From positions 1 through 64,000 of the IMG/VR virus record IMGVR_UViG_3300023174_000079: a stretch of DNA of 64,000 nucleotides; one strand, written 5' to 3'. Below are positions 1-53,939 of this stretch, one piece after another. Source of the stretch: a virus. The first letter of the stretch is position 1, and every line of letters begins with the position of its first letter. The notes beneath the pieces are model-generated. The model was given only the letters and a program-made list of their open reading frames with translations. It was not told the DNA's origin and did no database searches. The translations under genes and the position numbers were made by a program.

Positions 1-1
1 T

Positions 2-382
2 GATGGAGCTGCTTCAGCTTATCCAGAGCAGTATTCAAAGTGGTTGAATGTATTGAAAGAGAAAGCTGAAAGGTTAACAAAAGATGTTAAAGTTGATTTA
101 GACAAACCTCTAGATGAACAGTGTGATGATAAAACAACAGCTGAGAACTTAGAAGAGAGGTTTGATGAAGAGAAGAATATCTTAGACTATTTTAATAAAG
201 TTAAGGTTACAACTACTACAATAGGAGAGCAGGAGGACAAATGGAAGTGTCCATGTAATATTTGTAAGGAAGGTAAAGTCTCCTGGGAACAAGCTGCCTC
301 TGATTTAGCTCTAAAGATAATAAAGCTTGAAAAACAAATAGAAGAGCTTAAAATTGTAAATATATGCCAAAAGCCACTTTAG
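2..382 (+). CDS. hypothetical protein, 5' partial (frame is open from the window edge)
   Basis: Frame is open from position 2. Contains a CPCNIC motif and a C-terminal coiled coil. Confidence 0.6.
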   Translation, partial: DGAASAYPEQYSKWLNVLKEKAERLTKDVKVDLDKPLDEQCDDKTTAENLEERFDEEKNILDYFNKVKVTTTTIGEQEDKWKCPCNICKEGKVSWEQAASDLALKIIKLEKQIEELKIVNICQKPL

Positions 383-600
383 AATATAACTTAGATTTAC
401 CAGAAGATCTTGAAGAATTTGAACTAGCTAGTAATGCTAGAAAGTATTCTTTAGTGCTTTGGGAACTAGACCAGTACCTTAGAAACTTTGTCAAGTATCC
501 ATCTGATAAAGAGGATCCTATTCTCACTGATACTATGGCTAAGGTAAGAGATGAGCTTTGGAGGCTCTTGAATGAGCATAACTTGGATTTAAATTTATGA
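364..600 (+). CDS. conserved-type small phage hypothetical protein
   Basis: 78-aa ORF coupled to its neighbours, with typical phage early-gene composition. Confidence 0.7.
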   Translation: MPKATLEYNLDLPEDLEEFELASNARKYSLVLWELDQYLRNFVKYPSDKEDPILTDTMAKVRDELWRLLNEHNLDLNL

Positions 601-686
601 AAAAAAGAATTCCAAAATATGGCTTACTAGGTATGCCAATGGTTATAAAATGGATAAGAGATAGAAAAGAAAAAGAAAATAAATGA
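597..686 (+). CDS. 29-aa basic microprotein MKKRIPKYGLLGMPMVIKWIRDRKEKENK
   Basis: ATGA overlap with the upstream stop codon. Fills most of the 600-698 gap. Below the ORF-track size cutoff. Confidence 0.45.
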   Translation: MKKRIPKYGLLGMPMVIKWIRDRKEKENK

Positions 687-697
687 GATTTTAATCA

Positions 698-904
698 ATG
701 AAACCAGAATGGGAAATCAGATCTGATAGAGAAGGTAACTTTGATGAAGTTGTTGCCGAAGATGCTCAATTTGTCCATCTAGAAAGAATGGATCAGGATA
801 GATTTTGGCTTGGAATTACTCTTCAGGATGGCTCAAGAATTACAGCTAACCTATACATTAATAATGGCATTCTAAAGCTGAGTGCTGAGAGAGAAGAGCT
901 TTGA
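698..904 (+). CDS. hypothetical protein
   Basis: 68-aa ORF whose TGA stop lies inside the TTGACA of the next promoter. Confidence 0.65.
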   Translation: MKPEWEIRSDREGNFDEVVAEDAQFVHLERMDQDRFWLGITLQDGSRITANLYINNGILKLSAEREEL

Positions 905-929
905 CAAGCCCTCCTAAAGCATATAGAAT
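901..929 (+). promoter_or_regulatory. sigma70-type early promoter, repeat copy 1
   Basis: TTGACA-17 nt-TAGAAT, with ATG 6 nt downstream at 936. Confidence 0.85.
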
Positions 930-935
930 AAGATT

Positions 936-1199
936 ATGAATGAATTAATAGAAAAATGGAAACCAGCAATGGTGTTTAAATTCAAAGATGGATCTTTTGT
1001 ACCAGAAGACAAATACCAGGAATGTGCTGAAAAACTAGAAAAGTTTCAACAAAAATATGGAGACAGAACAATTATGCAAGATCTTATCTATATGACTGTT
1101 GATAGCTATGCTAGAGGGGATGGAAAGTTTAGTGGTGGTATTTTTGAAGTCTTTGAAGACCATCCAGAATTAAAGAACAAACTTGACATCTCCTCCTAA
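936..1199 (+). CDS. hypothetical early protein (probably leaderless)
   Basis: 87-aa ORF directly after promoter copy 1. Its stop lies within promoter copy 2. Confidence 0.7.
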   Translation: MNELIEKWKPAMVFKFKDGSFVPEDKYQECAEKLEKFQQKYGDRTIMQDLIYMTVDSYARGDGKFSGGIFEVFEDHPELKNKLDISS

Positions 1200-1211
1200 A
1201 GCATATAGAAT
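1183..1211 (+). promoter_or_regulatory. sigma70-type early promoter, repeat copy 2
   Basis: TTGACA-17 nt-TAGAAT with the same CCTCCTAAAGCATA spacer. Followed by a late-type TAAATA at 1216-1221. Confidence 0.85.
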
Positions 1212-1229
1212 AAGATAAATATATAATAC

Positions 1230-1592
1230 ATGAAAAAGACATTACTCTTCACTGCATTATTAGCCCTATGCTCCACAGCTTTTGCTATTATTCCAATATC
1301 AACTCCTACCCCCACACCAGCTCCAACAGCTACACCAACTCCTACTCCTACACCAGCTCCAACAGCTACACCTACCCCAACACCTGCTCCTACCCCAGTG
1401 TGTGATCCAGAGGATGATGGAGATGATGAGTGTATTGAACATAATCTCTCCTTTGAACAGTGTGAAGAGTGCTTTGATAAGGAATTAAAGGATATTAAAA
1501 ATAAAGCAGAAGACAAGAAGAAGAAAGATGATAAAAAGAAGAAAGACTATGACAAGAAAAAGAAAGAGCATGATGATAAGTGTAAGCACTAG
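1230..1592 (+). CDS. secreted protein with Pro/Thr/Ala repeat and Lys/Asp-rich tail
   Basis: Sec signal peptide (MKKTLLFTALLALCSTAFA), a (TP/AP)n linker, a Cys-containing acidic segment and a KD-rich C-terminus. Confidence 0.75.
   Translation: MKKTLLFTALLALCSTAFAIIPISTPTPTPAPTATPTPTPTPAPTATPTPTPAPTPVCDPEDDGDDECIEHNLSFEQCEECFDKELKDIKNKAEDKKKKDDKKKKDYDKKKKEHDDKCKH
1302..1397 (+). repeat. imperfect tandem coding repeat (TPTPTPAPTA)n
   Basis: ACACCAGCTCCAACAGCTACACC occurs twice, plus degenerate units. Confidence 0.8.
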
Positions 1593-1607
1593 TCTATAAA
1601 AAGGTGC

Positions 1608-1636
1608 TTAATTCCTCTTCTTAAGGTCTGTAGAAT
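1608..1636 (+). promoter_or_regulatory. degenerate copy of the early promoter repeat
   Basis: TTAATT-CCTCTTCTTAAGGTCTG (17 nt)-TAGAAT aligns without gaps to the TTGACA copies. Confidence 0.55.
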
Positions 1637-1644
1637 AGGCATCA

Positions 1645-2277
1645 GTGATGGATTTCAAGAATTATTATAAAATTACTCTTCAGAAGATTAGTGAAGAGAT
1701 CGAAAAAGATAATAAAATTTCTCTAAACAAAAAACCTTTATTCGAGTCACCAATGCATCATGAAGCAGAGTTTTTTAATCATTTAAATGATATTAAAACA
1801 AATCATCCATTTGCATTAGAAATGATAGAGGATGGTAAATTCATTGAAAATGTAACTATTAATGATGCAACATATAAGCTATATAGAACTTTTGAAGAAG
1901 TTTATACTTGGGATATTTTTATTAGTGGAGAAAGTGGTCATGAATTAATATCAGCATTTATAAGATACACACCAAAACGAGGAATGATAGTGATAAATGG
2001 ACTTTGGCAGATCAATATTATAGTTGGTTTGGTAAGAGGGCTAATTAATGACTATTATTCAAAGCATTTTTCAGTTCTTGAATCTGATGCTGTTGCAAAT
2101 AACAAAGGTAAGAAATTCTATCAAAATTTAGCAAAGGAATATATCCAGCATGGGAAGGGTGTTACTGTGATTATTAATAATAAAGAAATTCCTTATAAAT
2201 TAGAAGATGCTGAATCATATTGGAAGAGTTCTAATGATGTACAAAGTTCTGATAAAAAGATAAGATTTTATTTTTAA
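1645..2277 (+). CDS. hypothetical protein, possibly GNAT-like fold
   Basis: 210-aa ORF. The C-terminal ESDAVANNKGKKFYQNL weakly resembles a GNAT motif. LFES could be a prohead-protease site. Confidence 0.6.
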   Translation: MMDFKNYYKITLQKISEEIEKDNKISLNKKPLFESPMHHEAEFFNHLNDIKTNHPFALEMIEDGKFIENVTINDATYKLYRTFEEVYTWDIFISGESGHELISAFIRYTPKRGMIVINGLWQINIIVGLVRGLINDYYSKHFSVLESDAVANNKGKKFYQNLAKEYIQHGKGVTVIINNKEIPYKLEDAESYWKSSNDVQSSDKKIRFYF

Positions 2278-2280
2278 TTC

Positions 2281-2309
2281 TTGACACCTCCTCCTAAAGC
2301 ATATAGAAT
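2281..2309 (+). promoter_or_regulatory. sigma70-type early promoter, repeat copy 3
   Basis: TTGACA-17 nt-TAGAAT, with an in-frame ATG 6 nt downstream at 2316. Confidence 0.85.
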
Positions 2310-2315
2310 ATGTTT

Positions 2316-2837
2316 ATGAAGCCTACTGTTGTTTGGATTACTGGTTTATCAGGTGCAGGGAAAACAACTGTAGCTAATGCTTTGTATGAAAAATGTATCT
2401 TTCAATACAGAACAGGTCTAGTTGATGGTGATGCAATAAGGGCAAAACATGATAAGCCTGTTGGCTTTGATATGGAGAGTAGGGGAAGAATGGTTAATGA
2501 GGCCATTTATATGACAAAGAATATGATCTGTTTTCAAAAAGCTAAACTTGTCATTGTTGCTATGATTTCCCCTCTTAGATCTATGAGAGATAGTGCTAGG
2601 GACATCCTTACAAAGTATTGTGAAGCAAACTTTATTGAGGTCTATATGGATACACCTCTTGAGATTTGTGAAGAAAGAGATCCTAAGGGACTTTATAAAA
2701 AAGCTCGCGCAGGCGAAATTAAAGACTTTACTGGAATTGATTCGATCTATGAACCAGCAACACACGCAGAAGTTATAGTTCCTTTTAATTATACAGTTGA
2801 TCAAGCTATTGAGATGATATATAATACAATTTTATGA
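2316..2837 (+). CDS. cysC: adenylylsulfate (APS) kinase
   Basis: WITGLSGAGKTT P-loop, DGDAIR, and ERDPKGLYKKARAGEIKDFTGIDSIYEP. Start placed at 2316 from promoter spacing (ORF track gives 2310). Confidence 0.93.
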   Translation: MKPTVVWITGLSGAGKTTVANALYEKCIFQYRTGLVDGDAIRAKHDKPVGFDMESRGRMVNEAIYMTKNMICFQKAKLVIVAMISPLRSMRDSARDILTKYCEANFIEVYMDTPLEICEERDPKGLYKKARAGEIKDFTGIDSIYEPATHAEVIVPFNYTVDQAIEMIYNTIL

Positions 2838-3331
2838 CTAAGAAAACACTACAACCTACTAATGACCTTTATATTCAGTTCACGGAGGATGAGCTCAATC
2901 AAATTGGAGCAGGACCTGGGACTAAGCTTTCTGTAAAGCATAATGATGATGGCTCTATTGAGCTTCGTCCTTATGTTAAGATGGAGATTGAGATTTCAGA
3001 TTGGTCGAGAGAAGTTCTCGAGATGCTTATTACAAAGTCCTGTGAGGATGATGTTTCTGTTAATGATGTTATTAATGATTTGCTGAAGCAATCACTCGAG
3101 CAGTATCCTACTGAGGATAATCTTGAACAGGCTAAAAAGGAGCTTCTCTTAGAAAAAGACTATCTATATAGTGCTAGTGTTAATGCAAATTCTATTAATA
3201 GCGATACTAGTATTACGGGTAATCAACAGTATAGTGCTACAGGTAGCGATATACTTTATAGGGTGCCTGAAAAATCAACTTTTAAGGGCCTTGAAAAACC
3301 ATATTGGTTTGATATTGGGTGTGATGTATAA
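2834..3331 (+). CDS. AbrB/MazE-like swapped-hairpin protein, possible second RHH-like segment
   Basis: LYIQFTEDELNQIGAGPGTKLSVKHNDDGSIELRP resembles an AbrB-type domain. Confidence 0.5.
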   Translation: MTKKTLQPTNDLYIQFTEDELNQIGAGPGTKLSVKHNDDGSIELRPYVKMEIEISDWSREVLEMLITKSCEDDVSVNDVINDLLKQSLEQYPTEDNLEQAKKELLLEKDYLYSASVNANSINSDTSITGNQQYSATGSDILYRVPEKSTFKGLEKPYWFDIGCDV

Positions 3332-3368
3332 GGACTAGATTATTGAGTCTCGCTTACTAATTAATAGT

Positions 3369-3950
3369 ATGAAGAAGTTACTATTACTTTCACTATTGCT
3401 TATTGCAGGGTGTACCGTTTATACTGAAAAACAATCTGAAGCTCTTAGTCAAAATGTCTATGCCGCGAATGATTCATTGAATAAAGCAAGAGTCGATTTA
3501 GCTTATTATTATTCTAACGAAACTACAAGGCTTGTTAAGCCTCCGAAGAAGAGAATTGACATTCAGTCTATCTATCAAGCAGGTGAGGTTGTTAAGGACG
3601 CTAAGGCCGGCGAAAAGACGAGGGTTGTTATTGTTCCTAGTCAATATAAAGGCGATAAGGTTGTTGTTGTCGATTCAGTCGAGTATCAAGATCTATTAAA
3701 GGTCAAGGCTATCGCCGAACAATTAAAGAAAGATAATGCAAATCTTGCAAGTGCTAAGGAAAACACAGATAAGGAATTGGCAAAGCAGGCGGAATACAAT
3801 AACAAGATGATTAAAGATCTCAATCATCTTCAAGCTGAGGTTTATAAGAAAGACCTTGCCATTTTGTGGAGAAACATTATTATTATTAGTTTATTCGGGC
3901 TTATTGGTGGGTATATCTACCTGCGAATGAACAAGTTATTCATGTTTTAG
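3369..3950 (+). CDS. candidate unimolecular spanin (lipoprotein, coiled coil, C-terminal TM helix)
   Basis: Lipobox LIAG-C15, a heptad-rich region and C-terminal NIIIISLFGLIGGYIYL. Lies upstream of the holin and endolysin. Confidence 0.65.
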   Translation: MKKLLLLSLLLIAGCTVYTEKQSEALSQNVYAANDSLNKARVDLAYYYSNETTRLVKPPKKRIDIQSIYQAGEVVKDAKAGEKTRVVIVPSQYKGDKVVVVDSVEYQDLLKVKAIAEQLKKDNANLASAKENTDKELAKQAEYNNKMIKDLNHLQAEVYKKDLAILWRNIIIISLFGLIGGYIYLRMNKLFMF

Positions 3951-3983
3951 TGGAAAAACTATAACCCGTGCATAAATATATGC

Positions 3984-4112
3984 ATGGATAAATTTTTAAA
4001 AATAATTTCATCTGTGGTTGATTCGGTAACTAACTGGATCAGTCTCCACCCTAAAACTGCTCTCGCTATTACGATTTTTATCGTTGGCTTTATCATCGGC
4101 TCTCTCTTTTAG
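3984..4112 (+). CDS. 42-aa membrane microprotein MDKFLKIISSVVDSVTNWISLHPKTALAITIFIVGFIIGSLF
   Basis: Late promoter TAAATA (3973-3978) is 5 nt before the ATG. One C-terminal TM helix. Confidence 0.7.
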   Translation: MDKFLKIISSVVDSVTNWISLHPKTALAITIFIVGFIIGSLF

Positions 4113-4130
4113 TAGAGCCTTTTAGCAATT

Positions 4131-4238
4131 ATGTACGACGAACGCACACGCTCATACTATCCCTATGTTCTGTTATACGGGTATAGCTTATTTTTAGGTT
4201 ATCAACTAGCCCACGCATTACTTTATCATTTAGGATAA
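4131..4238 (+). CDS. 35-aa hydrophobic microprotein MYDERTRSYYPYVLLYGYSLFLGYQLAHALLYHLG
   Basis: Fills the gap before the holin and is hydrophobic. Its stop overlaps the holin's TAAATA promoter. Confidence 0.45.
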   Translation: MYDERTRSYYPYVLLYGYSLFLGYQLAHALLYHLG

Positions 4239-4247
4239 ATATTATTG

Positions 4248-4691
4248 ATGTGGCAGAATATTGCTAATATAGGACAGACCGTTAGTGCTTTTTTGACGAA
4301 CGGAAAAGCACCACCTAATACTCCGTCTGAACTGCAAAAGCAGATGGAAGACACAAATCATCTGTCTTCTAAAAAGTTTTTTATCATTTTTAGCTCTTTG
4401 TTCATGCTTGCGTTTGTATTCTATACAAGCGTTGGATTACTTTGGGTTATCCCTAAGGCACCAGAAATTGTTTCAGCTTTTGTTACAATTTTTACAAAGA
4501 TGATAGAGATCTTTGGTGTTATTATTTCTGTTTACCTCGGTGCACAAGGTTTAGTTGATTTGAGATACAATAGTACATCCAATGCAAGTACAGAAGGTAT
4601 ATTAGAACAAAAAGAAGTTAATATTAATGAAACCATATTAACTAATAATGCAAAAGAAGATGACTATAATATTACAGGAGTTAATGTATGA
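4248..4691 (+). CDS. putative holin (2 TM helices)
   Basis: SSKKFFIIF...GLLW and IFGVIISVYLGAQGLVD TM segments. ATGA overlap with the endolysin. TAAATA is 6 nt before ATG 4248. Confidence 0.7.
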   Translation: MWQNIANIGQTVSAFLTNGKAPPNTPSELQKQMEDTNHLSSKKFFIIFSSLFMLAFVFYTSVGLLWVIPKAPEIVSAFVTIFTKMIEIFGVIISVYLGAQGLVDLRYNSTSNASTEGILEQKEVNINETILTNNAKEDDYNITGVNV

Positions 4692-5299
4692 AATTACCTT
4701 CACCTAAGGCTCTAGCACTAATATTGGAATATGAGGTCGGTGGTGGTAAGAGTTACTACGATAAATATCTCTCTAAGCCTACTTGGCCCGGTGGGGCCAG
4801 TGGTATGACCCTTGGAATAGGTGTGGATTGTGGATATTATACACCCGCTGAGCTTGAAAAGTTGTTTAACTTTCTTCCAAGTAATCAATTAGAGGTAGTA
4901 AAGGGAGCTTCTGGAAAAACAGGTCAAGCTGGTAAAGATTACACTACTAAACACAAAAATGATGGCATTGTCGTTACCTGGGATCAAGCTATTAACATAT
5001 TCAATCAATTAACTTGGCCAAAATTCGCAAAACTTGCAGAAAAGGCGTTTCCTGGACTTGATCAATTATGTGATAACGCGTATGGTGCTATTGTGTCTCT
5101 AGTATTCAATAGAGGTTCATCTATGACAGGGGATAGTCGACAGGAAATGAGAAATATACGTGATTTAGTTCCGAAAAAGGATTATAAAGGTATAGCAACA
5201 GAACTTAGAAAGATGAAACGTCTTTGGGCCGGTAAAGGGCTTGATGGATTACTTGAAAGACGTGAAGCAGAAGCTAATTTAGTTGAAACTTGCGCTTAA
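4688..5299 (+). CDS. endolysin, T4-lysozyme/pesticin-like muramidase
   Basis: ILEYEVGG...PGGASGMTLGIGVDCG, SLVFNRG and GLLERREAEA motifs. Confidence 0.85.
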   Translation: MKLPSPKALALILEYEVGGGKSYYDKYLSKPTWPGGASGMTLGIGVDCGYYTPAELEKLFNFLPSNQLEVVKGASGKTGQAGKDYTTKHKNDGIVVTWDQAINIFNQLTWPKFAKLAEKAFPGLDQLCDNAYGAIVSLVFNRGSSMTGDSRQEMRNIRDLVPKKDYKGIATELRKMKRLWAGKGLDGLLERREAEANLVETCA

Positions 5300-5500
5300 A
5301 TGAGCAATTTAATTAGTGAATTTTTTGATTTTAATGGACCATGTCCAGATAATGTCCCTAATTGTCAGGAACTTCGTGAACAATATCAAAAAGATATACA
5401 GACAGTACGCGATTATGGCTGTCGGCCGTGTGCTGAAACTAGGATTAAAGTGAAATATATGGAAATAGTCTGGAACGCTTTTATGGCAACGCTAGGCTAG
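5300..5500 (+). CDS. small Cys-rich hypothetical protein
   Basis: 66 aa with GPCP...C and GCRPC. Starts immediately after the endolysin stop. Confidence 0.7.
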   Translation: MSNLISEFFDFNGPCPDNVPNCQELREQYQKDIQTVRDYGCRPCAETRIKVKYMEIVWNAFMATLG

Positions 5501-5973
5501 GGTATATGTTTAAACGCTCTATAGTATTTATAAAATTTTGACGCGTAAGTACGCTCAAATTGACGTGCATCAATCTCACATTCGTTCCTATAATAAGCGT
5601 TAGTGTTCCGTTCAACGTCATCATCGGTATAATTAATCTTCGAGGTCCCCACTTTGTATACTCTTGATTGCATCCAATGTCGAAACTCGTGAAGAAAATG
5701 ATTAAAGAAAGCTCTCTTTCGCTGTATTTTTGATGGTCGATTGCTGCGTGTAGGGTTACCACATAGACGTATTTTATCTGTCTTAAAAGTGTAATCACTG
5801 AAATCTGCATTATGCATAATCTGCAATGTTAAGACTTTACGTCTTGTGCTTATAGTAGGTTCAAGCTCGGCGAACAACAAAGAAATAGCGGCCTCCATAG
5901 CGTTTAAGTTAACATCGTTTTCTTTAAACCATGGAACAGAGTTCTTTGTAGGCTTTAGCTTGAATACAATCAT
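5497..5973 (-). CDS. putative zinc metallopeptidase (HExxH)
   Basis: FLHEFRHWMQ plus a downstream ECEIDARQF third-ligand motif. Confidence 0.7.
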   Translation of the reverse strand: MIVFKLKPTKNSVPWFKENDVNLNAMEAAISLLFAELEPTISTRRKVLTLQIMHNADFSDYTFKTDKIRLCGNPTRSNRPSKIQRKRAFFNHFLHEFRHWMQSRVYKVGTSKINYTDDDVERNTNAYYRNECEIDARQFERTYASKFYKYYRAFKHIP

Positions 5974-6013
5974 AATGGATTATTAGCTGTATATGGTATA
6001 ATATATTATATTA

Positions 6014-7665: not shown

Positions 7666-8025
7666 ATGAAATTGTTAACTCCTTTCCTCAAGATTCAAAA
7701 TCAGCTAAGAATCTTTCACTGGCAGACCTCTAGTTATGCCCAGCACAAGGCTTTTGGAAAGGCTTATGAGAATCTCGATGGTTTTATCGATGAGTTTGTT
7801 GAGATTTTTATGGGTAAGTACGGTCGTTCTAAAGCAGCTACTAGTTATAGTATTGAATTAGATAACCTTGGGAACGATTATCTTGAAGTTGTTAATAGTT
7901 TTATCGCCTATCTTATTAGTATTACTGATGAAGTCGACTCTGTTAACGATACTGATCTTCTCAATATTCGTGATTCTATGGTTGGTGAGCTCAATCGCTT
8001 GAAATATCTTCTTACGCTCAATTAA
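7666..8025 (+). CDS. ferritin/Dps-like four-helix protein (DUF5856-like)
   Basis: QLRIFHWQTSSYAQHKAFG...DEFVE...GKYGR...LNRLKYLLTL. Late promoter at 7651-7656. Confidence 0.75.
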   Translation: MKLLTPFLKIQNQLRIFHWQTSSYAQHKAFGKAYENLDGFIDEFVEIFMGKYGRSKAATSYSIELDNLGNDYLEVVNSFIAYLISITDEVDSVNDTDLLNIRDSMVGELNRLKYLLTLN

Positions 8026-11000
8026 GCGGTCACGTCGTATCCCCAAGTGTATGTATTATCGTTGATATCGATACGACCTGCAGCAGAGCCAACTGCTGTA
8101 TAGGTATTGAGATACGGGCTACCGACTCTTATACTATTTGGTAGTTGGTTGCTGAAATTTATATTATAAACATCTGTTGCAGGCTTGTGTAGTGTACAGG
8201 TTATATTGTGTACATCGTTTTGTGTGTATTGGAAGCGTATTGTAATTATGTAGAAGCAATTAGCTGTATCTTTTCCAAGATACGTAAGTGTATATAATCC
8301 GGTTTCCTTACTATAGTTAAGAGTTGGCTTTTCAATTTTTACTATGTTTAACTCTAATCCTTTTCCGTATAAAGAGAAAGCGCTTAATTCGCTAAAGGTC
8401 AAGCTAGAGTCGTTCTTTTGCGGAAAGATTTGATTTATTTGCTCGGTAACCAAATCAAGTATATATATTGTTGGATATATAGCTTTGTAATTTGAAGCGC
8501 TCAAGTTATTATGGTGCAGTGTGGTAGCTGCTACGGTGAGTAAATTTGTGTCTTCATCAAACCAGACAGTTGAAAACTTTTCAAGTTCAGGCTGATTGCC
8601 GCGATTTAAAATAATAGGAGGTGTCCGTGAAGTTGTAATAGCGTTCACATTATAGTCATATTGTAGCTTATTGAAAATTAAATAATTCTCCGTTTCAATC
8701 TGTAAGGTATCAAAATAAACGTCAAAGTTAATTGTATTACTATACACTTCATTTTGTATAGCACTGGGTAGAGATGCAAAGACTGCACTCAATGCTGTAG
8801 ATAGTGGTCCGGTGAAGGTGCTGTTAGCGTTTCTAAAATAGAACTCCCCGTGCTCGATATTTTTTGTATAGTAGAGAGAATTCTTTGTTACATTAATACC
8901 GGAGAGTGACTGATTAAGGACGGTATCAGTATTAGCAAGTCGGGCGTTAACAAAGTTTGTTGGTTCGTTATATTGATAATTATATGTGATTACATCACAC
9001 GGTCCGGCGTTAATGTTATAATCCCAGAATGCACCGCCATCGTATGTATCTGTAATATAAAAATTGTTTAAACTATCGCTTAGGAATTGAGCTTGATCGG
9101 TAAAATTCGCTACCCCTATTGGACTATTGGGCTGAGGCGCACCATCGGCAAGAGTATTATAGTAGAGATAGGAGTCTGTTGGTGTATAGCCGCTTTGATC
9201 GCTCGGAACGTCTGGTAATAGGGTATTATCTGGTTTTGTAAAGTTTACCCCGTCACCTACTGAGCAATCGTAAGTATCAGGATTTGCGTATCCGTATGCT
9301 GTATCATTTGTTTTAAAGTCATATGATTCTAGTACTAATGCTATTCCACCATCGTTAAATGTAGCTCCATTATCTAGATAACTTGTACCGTATATAGTTG
9401 TTGTAGGCTGTGCATTATAAATTGGTATATTACCACTGCTATCAACATGCTCGTCGATACTCGTTTTTAACACGACACCGGAGTAGTTAAGAGTTGTTCC
9501 ATAAGGAATATAGTTAACATTCTGTACGTTTGTTTTAGCTACATACCAACCAGGCCAGTTTGCATCTGCTGCAGTTAAATTAAAGACAAAGCTATCAAAA
9601 ACAAAATCTAAAAATTTAGTGGCGTGGGTGATAGTGTTAAATTGTTTATTTACGGCTGATTTATAAAGGCCGTACTGATTACCGTAAATATCACTCTTAA
9701 ACTGTACAAGGGTTTTATTTATCGGTAAAAGTGTACTCTCTCTCTGATCAATAGGAAATTGATTAATCAGTACAAGTGGATAAACATCAATATTACTCCA
9801 TATTGTATCTTGATCCCCGGTAAAAAAGTCCTGAGGATCAGCGTATCGCTGAATACCAAAATCAGTATAGTTTAATGTCTGTTCTCGTGTCTGATATGCT
9901 CTAAATGTCTGAAAACATGGATCACTTATCACATCACCCATTCTATATTGATTACTATAATCAATTTTATTAAAATAATTTTCTTCTAAAAATGTTAGTG
10001 GTGACTGAAAATCGAGTTTTGTGTTACCAGAGATATTACCATATTTCGATGGATCTGGGAAGTAGTAAACAGAGTTTGGTTGCAGTTTGGCTAGGTCAAT
10101 TTTTGATGTAAAATTGAAGTTTGTAAAATTAGCTATACCGATTTTATCAGGTTTAAAAAATAAGCCGATTTCTTTTTCTGTCTTTAAAAATTCTTGACTC
10201 GGAACAGCTGCAATAGTGGGATAGCGCTTATTAAGAAAATTTGCATAGTCATTATTTGCTGTAAAGAGGACACCAGAGGTAAATGTAGAGTTAGTGCTAG
10301 TGGCAATATAATAAAAATCTGTTCCGATGTACTTACTAATTTCCTGACTTATGGTTTGTAAATTGAGGTTATTAATGTTACCGTCATTAACAGTAGATAT
10401 GAAATCACTATCTTTGAGTAAATTGAGTTGATTGGAGTTTACTAACGGGTCAATTGTAAAATTATTAGTACCGAGCTCAATAGCATAAAACGGATAGCTA
10501 AGAATAGCTTTAACAATACTCTGATTAATATTAAGAAAGAGATAAGGGTCAATTTCAGACTGATTAAGGCTAAAGAAATCATTTCTTAATCCGGTAGTTA
10601 CATTATAAGCGGAAGCTGGTAAAGTCGGGCTTATATCGTAGTAATCAGTATACGTGTCGTACAGATCCTCAATATCAATATTAATATTACCACTAATATT
10701 TGATATAGGTAAATTAAGCGTGCTTAACTTTGTTGCAATGTCTTTGGTTTGAAGAGCGTTGACAAAGCTAACATATAGTAAATTCTCAATACCTAAATTT
10801 GAACCCTTGAGATTGTATTGTAATGTTGCAGTTTGAGCTTCATCGCGTAGGGTACTATAGTAAATACAGATATCTTTTATTTTTTTAGCAATGAACGGAA
10901 CAATAATTGCTAGATCACGGCTATTGGTAATATCTATATTTTGAAGATATCTTTGCTCGTCATCTGATGTATAATTGAGTACGATTTCGTTGATTAAATT

Positions 11001-53208: not shown

Positions 53209-53939
53209 GCCAGCAATCTATCCCAAGGAATGTCTTTAGAATAAGATATCGGATCCTTGATACCAGCCTGAATAAAACCCTGTAATCTTAAAGAGCATGC
53301 GGTACATTCACCGCACGCAAGATCCAATCCTTCATAACAGGTCCACGTGCGACTAAAGTCGACACCAAGCTCAATCCCCATTTCAATAATTTCTTTCTTG
53401 GACTTATTAATTAACGGAGCTTCGACTTTTATCTTGTTTCTCCTGTTAAGAGCAGTGATATTGTTGATTGCAGAAAGGAACTCTGGCGACCCATCCCAAA
53501 ATCCTGCGACACTATCGGCTTGCGCAGCACCATGGTAGACAGTCGTAGCGTCAAATTGCTCAGCAAACGAGCAAGCAATACTTAAAAGCATCATATTCCT
53601 AAAAGGTACGTAGTTTTGATTTTGGGGATCACCCATGACGTCTTTCGCTTTAGCAACGTCAATCTCACGATTGAGCAAGGCTGAATTCTTGATCAAGTCA
53701 AAAAACGGAAGCTTAACTACTGTGTTAAAACACACATTTTTTTCGTCATCTCCCTCTCGAATCACGTTAATTTGATAGTCAGCGCACTCAAGCTCTTTCC
53801 TGTGTCTCTGACCGTAGTCAAACGAAATTGCGTAGACGTTATCAAAATTAGATGCAGCGTGATGTAGTAACACTGTACTATCCATCCCACCGGAAACCGG
53901 TACAATAACTCCAGTTTTTACGTTATTCTCCTTGTTCAT
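53205..53939 (-). CDS. queC: QueC-like 7-cyano-7-deazaguanine synthase
   Basis: SGGMDS PP-loop, FDYGQRH, YVPFRN and the TWTCY...CGECTAC zinc site. Start placed at 53939. Confidence 0.88.
   Translation of the reverse strand: MNKENNVKTGVIVPVSGGMDSTVLLHHAASNFDNVYAISFDYGQRHRKELECADYQINVIREGDDEKNVCFNTVVKLPFFDLIKNSALLNREIDVAKAKDVMGDPQNQNYVPFRNMMLLSIACSFAEQFDATTVYHGAAQADSVAGFWDGSPEFLSAINNITALNRRNKIKVEAPLINKSKKEIIEMGIELGVDFSRTWTCYEGLDLACGECTACSLRLQGFIQAGIKDPISYSKDIPWDRLLA

Follow-up and report, generated by a model that had tools for sequence, protein, structure and literature searches.

Why should a phage that carries CG at ordinary frequency be almost free of this dinucleotide over one stretch, and why does this stretch end abruptly inside a gene? 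The window analyzed here is a 64,000-nt stretch of a 118,973-bp contig, and its first 2705 nt hold 4 CG, where base composition predicts 74.0 (observed/expected ratio, o/e, 0.054). From 2706 to 64000, 2105 CG were counted against 2087.5 expected (o/e 1.01), and the o/e of the remainder of the contig is 1.02. CG sites in positions 1-3000 were found at 757, 1701, 1743, 1978, 2706, 2708, 2714, 2743, 2765, 2883, and 2966; the four sites and the edge near 2706 counted by eye in the original prediction match exactly. The same prediction had CG becoming common beyond 2706, which stands, but at one per 50 nt, which is too low: the next 2.7 kb hold 69 CG in 2705 nt, about one per 39 nt (o/e 0.79). In a scan of the whole contig, 1-kb windows with a CG o/e below 0.6 occurred only within 1-3500. 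The desert contains the two longest runs without CG (944 and 728 nt), the third longest contig-wide being 242 nt, and among 1136 further windows of 2705 nt taken from the contig, none has fewer than 60 CG (mean 92.3).

This depletion persists after correction for codon and amino-acid use. With amino acids fixed and synonymous codons sampled from the remaining genome, 70.7 +/- 7.2 CG were expected, with a minimum of 46 in 2000 draws, so that tens of CG are missing by this null as by base composition. When the desert's own codons were permuted among synonymous sites, 24.0 +/- 3.7 CG were expected across codon boundaries (minimum 12) and 3 were observed. The two nulls together indicate that the depletion targets the dinucleotide itself and not codon choice. 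The desert contains no NCG codon, the Pro/Thr/Ala repeat included, and its Arg codons are 26 AGA/AGG and 1 CGA, compared with 739 CGN and 552 AGR elsewhere, both as had been noted by eye. GC (85 vs 74 expected, 1.15) and GATC (n=12, 4.4/kb vs 3.9/kb elsewhere) are not depleted, again as read from the letters. Since the stretch opens in the middle of an ORF, where a contig rated 54% complete by CheckV starts, the desert is truncated at position 1 and is the cut-off end of a conserved feature; to call it the early region of the genome, as the original prediction did, is tentative. The features of positions 1-2837, with genes called simply as longest ORFs, are as follows.

1..2705, no strand: CG desert, 4 CG vs 74 expected; its left end is the contig start.
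2..382, + strand: long coiled-coil protein gene, 3' part only; ORF open at the window start, 0 CG.
364..600, + strand: small acidic ORF, 78 aa, pI 4.4; adjoins cysC in 10/10 related loci.
698..904, + strand: 68-aa ORF; phrog_35961, E 6.6e-07; common only to L001 (87%).
900..2279, no strand: three-cassette block, absent from a related strain; the deletion ends at promoter copies 1 and 3.
901..929, + strand: promoter copy 1; TTGACA, 17-nt spacer, TAGAAT; conserved spacer CCTCCTAAAGCATA.
936..1199, + strand: orphan cassette ORF, 87 aa; sole homologue in the L002/G005 desert (55%).
1183..1211, + strand: promoter copy 2; same 29-nt pattern as copy 1.
1230..1592, + strand: cassette ORF, 120 aa; hydrophobic N-terminus, Pro/Thr/Ala repeat, Lys-rich tail; 0 NCG codons.
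1645..2277, + strand: orphan cassette ORF, 210 aa; distant homologue (30%) in the second desert of G001.
2281..2309, + strand: promoter copy 3; immediately 5' of cysC.
2310..2837, + strand: cysC (APS kinase); PF01583, E 1.1e-45, residues 5-157.

The coiled-coil protein has full-length homologues of 444-546 aa in L001, L004, L005, L006, L008, and L010 (44-61% identity), and the Pfam matches of the L005 homologue (7979-9619) are weak and of coiled-coil type only. The small acidic ORF has 0 CG in this contig and 9 in L005. For the 210-aa cassette product, a weak structural lead points to a GNAT-like fold. Residues 5-157 of CysC align to positions 2-151 of the 152 of PF01583, and the translation contains both GLSGAGKTT (P-loop) and KKARAGE; judged from these matches, the product is a full-length APS kinase domain and a predicted enzyme.

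A desert at a contig end, next to repeated promoters by which assemblers could be misled, might be thought to reflect a chimeric assembly near 2705. Logan contigs from four runs and three studies bridge this position: X1 record 1 (1-6000), X2 record 11 (2281-4897), X3 record 19 (2280-4293), and X4 record 23 (2280-3951), X1 and X2 possibly being the source sample while X3 and X4 are not so marked. Moreover, the cysC reading frame is unbroken across the edge, the arrangement is repeated in 9/10 related loci, and the deserts of G001 and G004 lie inside their contigs. The chance that the edge is a chimeric join, as the original prediction had allowed, is thus practically negligible.

We then consider which phages share the desert. 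The phage carrying it, known from lake water and uncultured, is a deep-branching member of the T4-like group. A PF07068 (Gp23) match (E 3e-68) was found at 105633-106769 of this contig (G000), with Gp23 also present in G003, G006, and G007, and the best cultured match to the capsid protein reaches only about 32% identity. When cysC was scanned against the genomes of 185,579 species, no match exceeded 51% identity, and the matches were spread over many phyla. A CG-poor stretch lies 5' of cysC in 9/10 related IMG/VR loci (o/e <=0.32; L009 = 0.57). Deserts of 2.6-7.7 kb are present in the related T4-like genomes G001, G004, G005, G006, and G007, G001 having four of them, distributed along 30 kb and separated by CG-normal DNA. 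No desert was called in G002 and G003, the G002 contig ending 705 nt upstream of cysC at an o/e of 0.25. Pooled, the deserts have a CG o/e of 0.07 vs 0.81 in the remainder, and their median gene length is 91 aa vs 158 aa elsewhere; the 10 longest desert ORFs were compared with Pfam, and none reached the cut-off. The capsid proteins of desert-sharing phages are only 64-68% identical. Since the lowest per-kb CG o/e in T4 1-50 kb is 0.53, CG clearing is not a general T4 trait.

The sharp edge itself looks like a recombination joint, as far as alignment with relatives can tell. Codons 1-132 of cysC are CG-free and close to those of the relative L001, while the last 43 codons contain 5 CG and are unlike all relatives; compared with the closest relative, identity is 84% nt and 88% aa in the first part but 64% and 49% in the last. 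This break at 2705/2706 suggests that the joint lies within cysC. Desert edges are often intragenic in the related phages too, which is consistent with recombination joints, yet single transcripts then combine CG-free and CG-bearing parts.

The original prediction had proposed, as one option, that a CG-avoiding phage donated the module through a crossover in cysC. The recombination signature at the edge fits the crossover, as does cassette exchange. A Logan contig of 35,702 nt (X4 record 23) joins 899 to 2280 and is therefore without 900-2279, X1 record 2 has a different sequence between promoter copies, and the X2 contigs break at 1203/1211 and 2281/2309. Between G006 and G007, desert proteins are 83-95% identical, whereas 73 other orthologues have a median of 44.5% and the capsid protein is 64.6% identical, a difference that indicates horizontal exchange. 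The cassettes are thus mobile: phages acquire, lose, and trade them, in part through recombination at the repeated promoters. The CG-avoiding partner, in contrast, was not found: genome-wide CG o/e varies among the relatives from 0.52 to 1.00, and none is CG-free genome-wide. If import from a CG-poor lineage were the whole explanation, with no selection on CG in this phage, the edge, the exchange, and this variation among relatives would fit, but a donor with a genome-wide o/e near 0.05 would be expected and the lowest is 0.52. Desert orthologues at 38-94% protein identity are all still CG-poor, which requires continued CG removal and makes ancestry alone insufficient.

In addition, the same gene can be CG-free or CG-normal by location. 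A 223-aa phosphoesterase gene has 1 CG (15 expected) in the G004 desert and 8 CG (16 expected) in G007, where it lies outside a desert, although the pair is 94% identical in amino acids and 89.7% in nucleotides. At each of the 8 CG sites the change is synonymous (unrooted differences, one of which, at position 61, is common to an outgroup). Third-position C differs in 7/7 cases before G vs 8/31 not before G (Fisher p = 5e-4). Other members of the family have 0-4 CG in deserts and 6-13 outside. In these comparisons, CG content tracks genomic place and not gene ancestry, so we consider a purely ancestral origin of the desert unlikely.

The deserts are also linked to promoters. An identical sigma70-type promoter lies directly 5' of many small orphan desert genes, and its 29-nt pattern was found in 57 copies in 33 IMG/VR stretches, the flanks of which have a CG o/e below 0.3 in 46/57 cases and of at least 0.6 in 4/57. 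Strict sigma70 sites are eight times more frequent in deserts than elsewhere (0.79/kb vs 0.10/kb), and TATAAATA motifs seven times rarer (0.02/kb vs 0.16/kb). The 4/57 copies in CG-normal DNA count against the promoter link, as does the G004 desert, which is without the repeated promoter and has 70 sigma70-like sites vs 65.3 +/- 9.0 in shuffles. From promoter and motif content, the desert genes are probably expressed early. In 41/60 promoter copies an ATG follows 6 nt after the -10 hexamer, as it does between promoter copy 1 and the next ORF, and the mRNAs would therefore be leaderless.

PeSL (promoter-early stem-loop) cassettes of T4-like phages were reportedly described by Arbiol et al. in 2010. 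They lie in the hyperplastic regions of these phages (Comeau, Arbiol & Krisch 2014, PMC4122927, in the part of the article consulted). The arrays described here resemble them: the phage is T4-like, small orphan genes are separated by a repeated conserved early-type promoter, indels and replacements end in the repeats (X4 record 23, X1 record 2), and otherwise unrelated genes are traded from phage to phage. Unlike PeSL cassettes, they have no stem-loop or terminator half. Sequences 60 nt upstream of the promoters fold about as shuffles do (mean MFE -6.43 vs -6.15 kcal/mol; 5/59 at -10 or below), and no terminator-like site was found on the + strand upstream of 901, 1183, and 2281. Leaderless mRNAs are a second expected difference. 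The third is that the arrays are cleared of CG, a property unmentioned in the consulted part of PMC4122927 and absent from T4 1-50 kb.

Our preferred reading, to which we give about an even chance, is that selection still acts against CG in mobile cassette arrays expressed early, with a CG-directed activity of the host as the favored cause and a joint in cysC as its edge. Positions 1-2705 would form the right end of a hyperplastic small-gene array, many genes of which stand behind a host-type sigma70-like promoter, and such arrays would circulate by recombination even among distant phages of the group. Selection would purge CG, and more weakly GGCC and CATG, from any DNA located in the arrays. 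The pressure could come from a host nuclease or transcription block directed at CG-containing DNA, and it would be strongest on genes needed in the first minutes, before phage counter-measures act; for the rest of the genome, early gene products, repair, or base modification may provide a later rescue. At 2705/2706, a CG-free segment of promoter and 5' cysC would meet a different, CG-containing cysC 3' end. Evasion of a CG-recognizing defense by early-exposed DNA had been proposed, and early exposure and selection agree with the three near-consensus sigma70 promoters and with the CG-specific, context-dependent loss. One point counts against a DNA nuclease: if all the DNA is injected at once, CG selection is expected elsewhere too, and the remaining genome has an o/e of 1.0. 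A way round this would be that early genes are the sole indispensable target, later cuts being repaired or prevented.

The agent probably comes from the host and would act on DNA and not on RNA. GGCC (0.43) and CATG (0.51) are the lowest of the 110 CG-less tetramers in deserts (elsewhere 0.74 and 0.81), and the residual desert CGs, at which T before and A after are tolerated, have a nearly strand-symmetric context. Palindrome avoidance and near symmetry hint at pressure on DNA. We also considered a factor directed at RNA, such as a ribonuclease of the host or the phage, that reads CG in the earliest transcripts. This would explain regional avoidance without staged entry of the DNA, and it suits deserts that are promoter-rich, co-oriented arrays of small genes. 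A slight sense-strand asymmetry of the residual CGs (27 A-after-only vs 12 T-before-only; 55:45 in the remaining genome) goes the same way but is marginal. Intragenic edges leave CG in the 3' part of mRNAs such as that of cysC, and the GGCC and CATG avoidance points to recognition of double-stranded DNA. We know of no CG-specific bacterial RNase, and selection on RNA appears doubtful.

A regional mutation bias without selection, by methyl-CG or transcription-linked deamination, could account for the phosphoesterase pair, in which 7/8 CG differences are at C and six are C/T, and for CA/TG being slightly higher in deserts (1.16 vs 1.07 elsewhere). The Arg shift from CGN to AGR, however, requires C-to-A changes and is not a product of C-to-T decay, the gains of AG/CT and GA/TC are the largest and exceed that of TG/CA, and the coding strand of the desert is not T-enriched (T 0.287 vs 0.320). 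No PF00145 (cytosine-5 methylase) match was found in the phage records G000-G007 (G000-G005 being incomplete), although the host might encode such a methylase. Such a bias is highly improbable as the cause. Alternatively, the phage itself might mark CG sites, for example with a 7-deazaguanine derivative, and its first-read genes might avoid the target. QueC is indeed encoded at 53265-53909; nevertheless, G006 (completeness rating 100%) shows no QueC match, although it carries deserts as well as this promoter. PF01702 (TGT) was without match in G000, G001, G003, G006, and G007, as were N4/N6 methylases in G000, G001, G006, and G007. Since nothing links modification to CG either, we regard a modification-free zone as very unlikely.

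Returning to selection on early genes, the desert could instead be the leading end of the DNA, which is first to enter the cell and has to withstand restriction before an early protein shields the remainder. Contigs ending within a desert (this contig, L001, L004, L007, L008, L010, G006, and G007) favor this, but such breaks are also explained by repeated promoters and cassette polymorphism, as seen in X2. T4 packages its DNA by headful, with permuted ends and without fixed ends, and the capsid protein here is of the T4 type. The four G001 deserts, split by CG-normal DNA, and the lack of a terminal repeat (in the metagenome contigs G000, G006, and G007, end repeats do not go beyond 40-120-nt promoter units, by which alone the G006 ends overlap) argue further against first injection, and this half of the original prediction finds no support. 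Precedents exist in the consulted parts of two articles: in Autographiviridae, absence of a motif only in the first-injected region decides Type I sensitivity (PMC12455610), and in T5 and BF23 a terminal repeat with pre-early genes is injected first (PMC10644984). As described there, these pre-early regions and the leading regions of Murciavirus and T7-like phages resemble the desert in being small, variable, host-promoter-driven, and without words common elsewhere. They differ in that the avoided word here is a bare dinucleotide graded by its flanks and not a 4-13-bp site, in that neither fixed ends nor terminal repeats are apparent in this T4-like phage, and in that several islands per genome are possible. 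A leading-end origin is rather unlikely.

A more specific form of the preferred reading is possible, though clearly short of probable. Some freshwater bacteria may have an immune or silencing factor that reads bare CpG in incoming nucleic acid and tolerates T before and A after, and a whole group of T4-like lake phages may answer it with CpG-free, leaderless first-response cassettes under host promoters, shared among them horizontally as one pool. If so, prokaryotes would have, in this factor, their own equivalent of animal CpG sensing. The purge in any case predicts a CG-directed activity in abundant lake bacteria. In vertebrate viruses, CpG is suppressed through ZAP- or TLR9-type sensing or methylation decay. 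CG avoidance across codon boundaries is common to both cases, as an analogy only. The deserts differ from this suppression, which is touched on in the consulted part of PMC5683454, in belonging to a bacterial virus, in being regional and not genome-wide, and in being far stronger (o/e 0.05-0.07); as for methylation decay, the phage records have no cytosine methylase and the TG/CA excess is too small for the loss. The literature searched contained no account of CpG-free stretches in the genomes of phages. Local restriction-site avoidance in T5- and T7-like phages and mobile early-promoter cassettes in T4-like phages are already known; the new elements are a near-total dinucleotide purge over 2.6-7.7 kb, its confinement to cassette arrays, and a selection that would depend on position. 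CG deserts offer a simple marker, readable from sequence alone, by which the likely first-response genes of large uncultured phages can be picked out; anti-defense genes are expected among them.

Only 4 CG dinucleotides (at 757, 1701, 1743 and 1978) were found in positions 1-2705 of the window, where base composition predicts 74.0 (observed/expected ratio, o/e, 0.054), and the next ones follow at 2706, 2708 and 2714. The remainder of the window contains 2105 CGs for 2087.5 expected. We looked at the whole 118,973-bp contig and observed that the only 1-kb windows with an o/e below 0.6 are those at this CG-poor stretch, called here a desert. Its two longest CG-free gaps, of 944 and 728 nt, are also the longest of the contig, the third being 242 nt, and the lowest count among the 1136 other 2705-nt windows is 60. 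The original prediction was made by eye, and its count of 4 CGs in 1-2704 with a return of CG at 2706 proved exact. It had also claimed that NCG codons are absent, that Arg is almost always AGA/AGG and that GC and GATC are not depleted; in 1-2705 we counted no NCG codon, 26 AGR codons against one CGA, and found no depletion of GC or GATC. The depletion holds after correction for codon and amino-acid use, with 70.7 ± 7.2 CGs expected (minimum 46 in 2000 draws) when the protein is fixed and codons are taken from the remaining genome. The coding strand of the region is A-rich and C-poor, with CT, CC, TG and GA raised and GT and AC lowered. Codon supply cannot explain that CG is avoided across codon boundaries too: 3 boundary CGs were observed for 24.0 ± 3.7 when the region's own codons were permuted among synonymous sites. 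A tRNA-based cause was likewise rejected, as this 119-kb contig has no tRNA gene. Related T4-like phages (G001, G006 and G007) carry 14-19 of them, including tRNA-Arg(TCT) in G006 and G007.

An assembly join at about 2705 had been named as a possible refutation, and it was not borne out. Logan contigs of four sequencing runs span the edge (X1 record 1, X2 record 11, X3 record 19 and X4 record 23), X1 and X2 possibly being from the source sample while X3 and X4 bear no such mark, the X4 strain being about 6% different. Moreover, the reading frame of cysC (2310-2837, + strand) is unbroken over the edge, and its product aligns with the whole length of the APS-kinase model. Together these argue strongly against a chimeric assembly. 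X1 record 1 covers 1-6000 and extends 179 nt past the window start. Since the contig begins in the middle of an ORF, the desert is truncated on the left. Completeness was estimated by CheckV at 54%, and the two relatives rated complete (G006 and G007) measure 218 kb and 226 kb. Among the contig's genes is one for a major capsid protein of gp23 type, and all runs holding the stretch are lake or freshwater metagenomes. No RNA run was listed among them, and the runs compared were DNA contigs, which carry no information on depth or on molecule ends. Against 50,697 deposited phage records, megablast of 1-6000 gave no close DNA relative, and protein searches gave only distant matches (RecB-like exonuclease 29%, cysC 36-46%, capsid about 32% to its best cultured-phage match) and neither a cultured relative nor a host. 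Compared with the genomes of 185,579 species, cysC reached 51% at best, with matches spread across many phyla and uninformative on the host.

To see how far the desert is conserved, we used ten IMG/VR loci that encode a cysC relative at 58-77% identity and share the gene order. In nine of them, the stretch of up to 3 kb upstream of cysC has a CG o/e of 0.10-0.32, the exception being L009 with 0.57; as L005 and L006 are near-identical, this amounts to eight of nine distinct loci. The 3 kb downstream mostly have an o/e of 0.6-1.1 (0.43 in L002). Where contigs extend further, the desert measures about 5 kb. The G004 desert (64,601-69,540) is bordered by a tail-fibre gene on one side and by cysC on the other. 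In L005 too, a tail-fibre gene (166-2214) stands beside the desert, with an N-terminal Mtd_N (major tropism determinant) domain and a Peptidase_S74 chaperone domain. Four deserts summing to 17.8 kb were found inside the first 31 kb of G001, one in G005, and one in each of the complete G006 and G007, divided between both contig ends. In G002 and G003 no desert was called, the G002 contig ending 705 nt upstream of cysC with an o/e of 0.25 there. The symmetrised CG value is 0.07 in 41,960 nt of pooled desert and 0.81 in the remaining 1.06 Mb. The idea that all T4-like early regions are CG-poor was rejected, as the minimum per kb is 0.53 in the early-gene-rich positions 1-50 kb of T4, the sole control; the PeSL promoter cassettes were defined in other phages, RB49 and phi1. 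Genome-wide, the o/e of six of the genomes (G000, our contig, G001, G003 and G005-G007) goes from 1.00 in G000 to 0.52 in G005, so that entire genomes of some lineages may be under a weaker CG pressure.

The window desert contains small ORFs and three copies of one promoter, as follows.

Promoters and small ORFs of the window desert
901: promoter copy 1, before ORF 936-1199
1183: promoter copy 2, before ORF 1230-1592
1230-1592: ORF of 120 aa whose N-terminus is hydrophobic and lipoprotein-like, followed by a Pro/Thr/Ala repeat and a tail rich in Lys; sole homologue in the G005 desert
1645-2277: 210-aa orphan ORF; Atlas matches to viral hypothetical clusters and a weak GNAT acetyltransferase likeness (TM 0.56-0.57)
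2281: promoter copy 3, before cysC

The promoter consists of TTGACA, a 17-nt spacer with the invariant part CCTCCTAAAGCATA, and TAGAAT. We found this pattern 12 times in G001, three times in the G005 desert and in 33 IMG/VR stretches; it is not present in the G004 desert. The flanks of 57 copies have a CG o/e below 0.3 in 46 cases, 0.3-0.6 in 7 and at least 0.6 in 4. In 41 of 60 copies, a set that takes in window 929-936, 1211-1230 and 2309-2310 and loci L041-L073, the start codon lies 6 nt past the -10 hexamer, so that the transcripts would be leaderless; leaderless early mRNAs are not typical of T4-like phages and may hint at what the host is. No stem-loops were found upstream of the promoters. 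Strict sigma70-type sites number 0.79 per kb in deserts and 0.10 elsewhere, and TATAAATA, the T4 late-promoter word, 0.02 and 0.16. Desert genes are short (median 91 aa vs 158 aa), and none of the ten longest desert ORFs of the relatives passed the Pfam cut-off, two of ten matching PHROGs of unknown function. From this excess of sigma70-type sites, the scarcity of TATAAATA, the short genes and the missing Pfam matches, we take the deserts for arrays of orphan genes that the host polymerase would transcribe early, the timing being predicted from promoters and motifs. For ORF 1645-2277, a pattern scan of IMG/VR gave no relatives, and the GNAT likeness is a lead only.

These arrays are mobile. 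In the related strain of X4 (record 23, a 35.7-kb contig), 899 is joined straight to 2280 at the promoter copies, and block 900-2279, three cassettes from promoter copy 1 to copy 3, is missing. Other contigs have differing sequence or inserts between the promoter copies, and X2 contigs break at them; such cassette polymorphism and repeated promoters account for the frequent contig ends within deserts in this phage group. Outside deserts, G006 and G007 share a median protein identity of 44.5% (73 orthologue pairs; capsid 64.6%), whereas the five desert-to-desert pairs are 83-95% identical, and similar contrasts were observed for G001 with G006 and with G007. Since desert proteins are far more alike than the remaining orthologues, gene comparison shows that cassettes are exchanged horizontally among distant members of the group.

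We then compared related genes inside and outside deserts. A gene for a calcineurin-like phosphoesterase (223 aa) has 1 CG (15 expected) within the G004 desert and 8 (16 expected) in G007, where it lies far from any desert. Protein identity between the two copies is 94%, DNA identity 89.7%. Each of the eight CG sites differs within the pair by a synonymous change; third-position C differs in 7 of 7 cases before G and in 8 of 31 elsewhere (Fisher p = 5e-4). Other family members have 0-4 CGs in desert flanks (L007, L073) and 6-13 in non-desert contexts (G005, G003, L070). Likewise, the ORF at 364-600 has no CG in the window and 9 in L005, and desert orthologues of 38-94% identity are still CG-poor. 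This dependence on context, together with the CG poverty of diverged orthologues, indicates that CG was removed in place and kept out. The CG purge of the cassette arrays is real and conserved. Ancestry alone does not account for CG following position, and simple C-to-T decay fits badly with Arg having moved from CGN to AGR codons.

Over its first 132 codons, the window cysC is 84% identical in nucleotides (88% in amino acids) to its closest relative, L001, and over the last 43 codons 64% (49%). These last codons (2706-2837) are 44-60% identical in amino acids to all ten relatives, and lack a six-residue insert common to all ten. Identity breaks at the conserved KKARAGE motif, where the first CGs also appear, and a cassette promoter directly 5' of cysC is found in this genome only. 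Thus, cysC appears chimeric, and we read 2705/2706 as a recombination joint. In the relatives the change around cysC is more gradual, the first CGs standing at +11 to +311; other desert edges are as sharp and likewise within ORFs. Of the suggestion that the desert came as a module by crossover in the conserved part of cysC, the crossover agrees with the break at KKARAGE, but acquisition from a CG-poor source is insufficient, since CG was removed in place.

The nearest known cases are of two kinds. PMC4122927 describes hyperplastic regions with promoter cassettes in T4-like phages. The deserts, which we regard as their counterpart, share the architecture and mobility of these PeSL regions, but are without the stem-loop half and are purged of CG. 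In T5-like (PMC10644984) and T7-like phages (PMC12455610), sites are avoided in the region exposed first and not beyond it; the logic is the same as in the deserts, which differ in phage type, in having a dinucleotide as target and in that several islands are possible. Staged DNA entry may lie behind the CG avoidance. With DNA delivered all at once, a DNA nuclease would select only locally if the loss of early genes alone were irreparable later. In a full-text search of the literature library, limited to main texts, no phage genome was described as having CpG-free regions.

To look at what might read CG, we examined the 83 residual CGs in the pooled deserts of G000, G001 and G004-G007. They are mostly T-CG or CG-A, 28 being TCGA. 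Relative to elsewhere, the CG density kept is 0.32 for TCGA, 0.08-0.13 with only T before or A after, and 0.007-0.046 with neither. The flank effect is about multiplicative per strand and almost strand-symmetric, the asymmetry of contexts being marginal. Among 110 CG-less tetramers, the lowest in deserts are the palindromes GGCC (0.43) and CATG (0.51), with 0.74 and 0.81 in the remainder. This looks like restriction avoidance that is stronger in the arrays. An RNA-directed agent may lie behind the CG avoidance, but the GGCC and CATG deficits favour one acting on DNA, and word usage tips us towards a DNA-level agent. Phage-encoded CG methylation is ruled against, as no cytosine-5 or N4/N6 methylase match (PF00145, PF01555) was found in desert-bearing genomes. 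A candidate modification gene lies in the window:

53265-53909, - strand: QueC gene (PF06508, E 3.9e-60)

QueC is present in G000, G002 and G007 and absent from G006, so by gene content the 7-deazaguanine pathway is variable within the group. A link to the deserts is unlikely and was rejected, since G006 is complete and has a desert without QueC. No PF01702 match was found in five records (G000, G001, G003, G006 and G007), a model that divergent phage enzymes may escape. Finally, an N4/N6 DNA methylase match with one in-frame TGA was observed at G003:C1:118586-118927 (- strand, E 6.4e-9), G003 being the one long relative without deserts.
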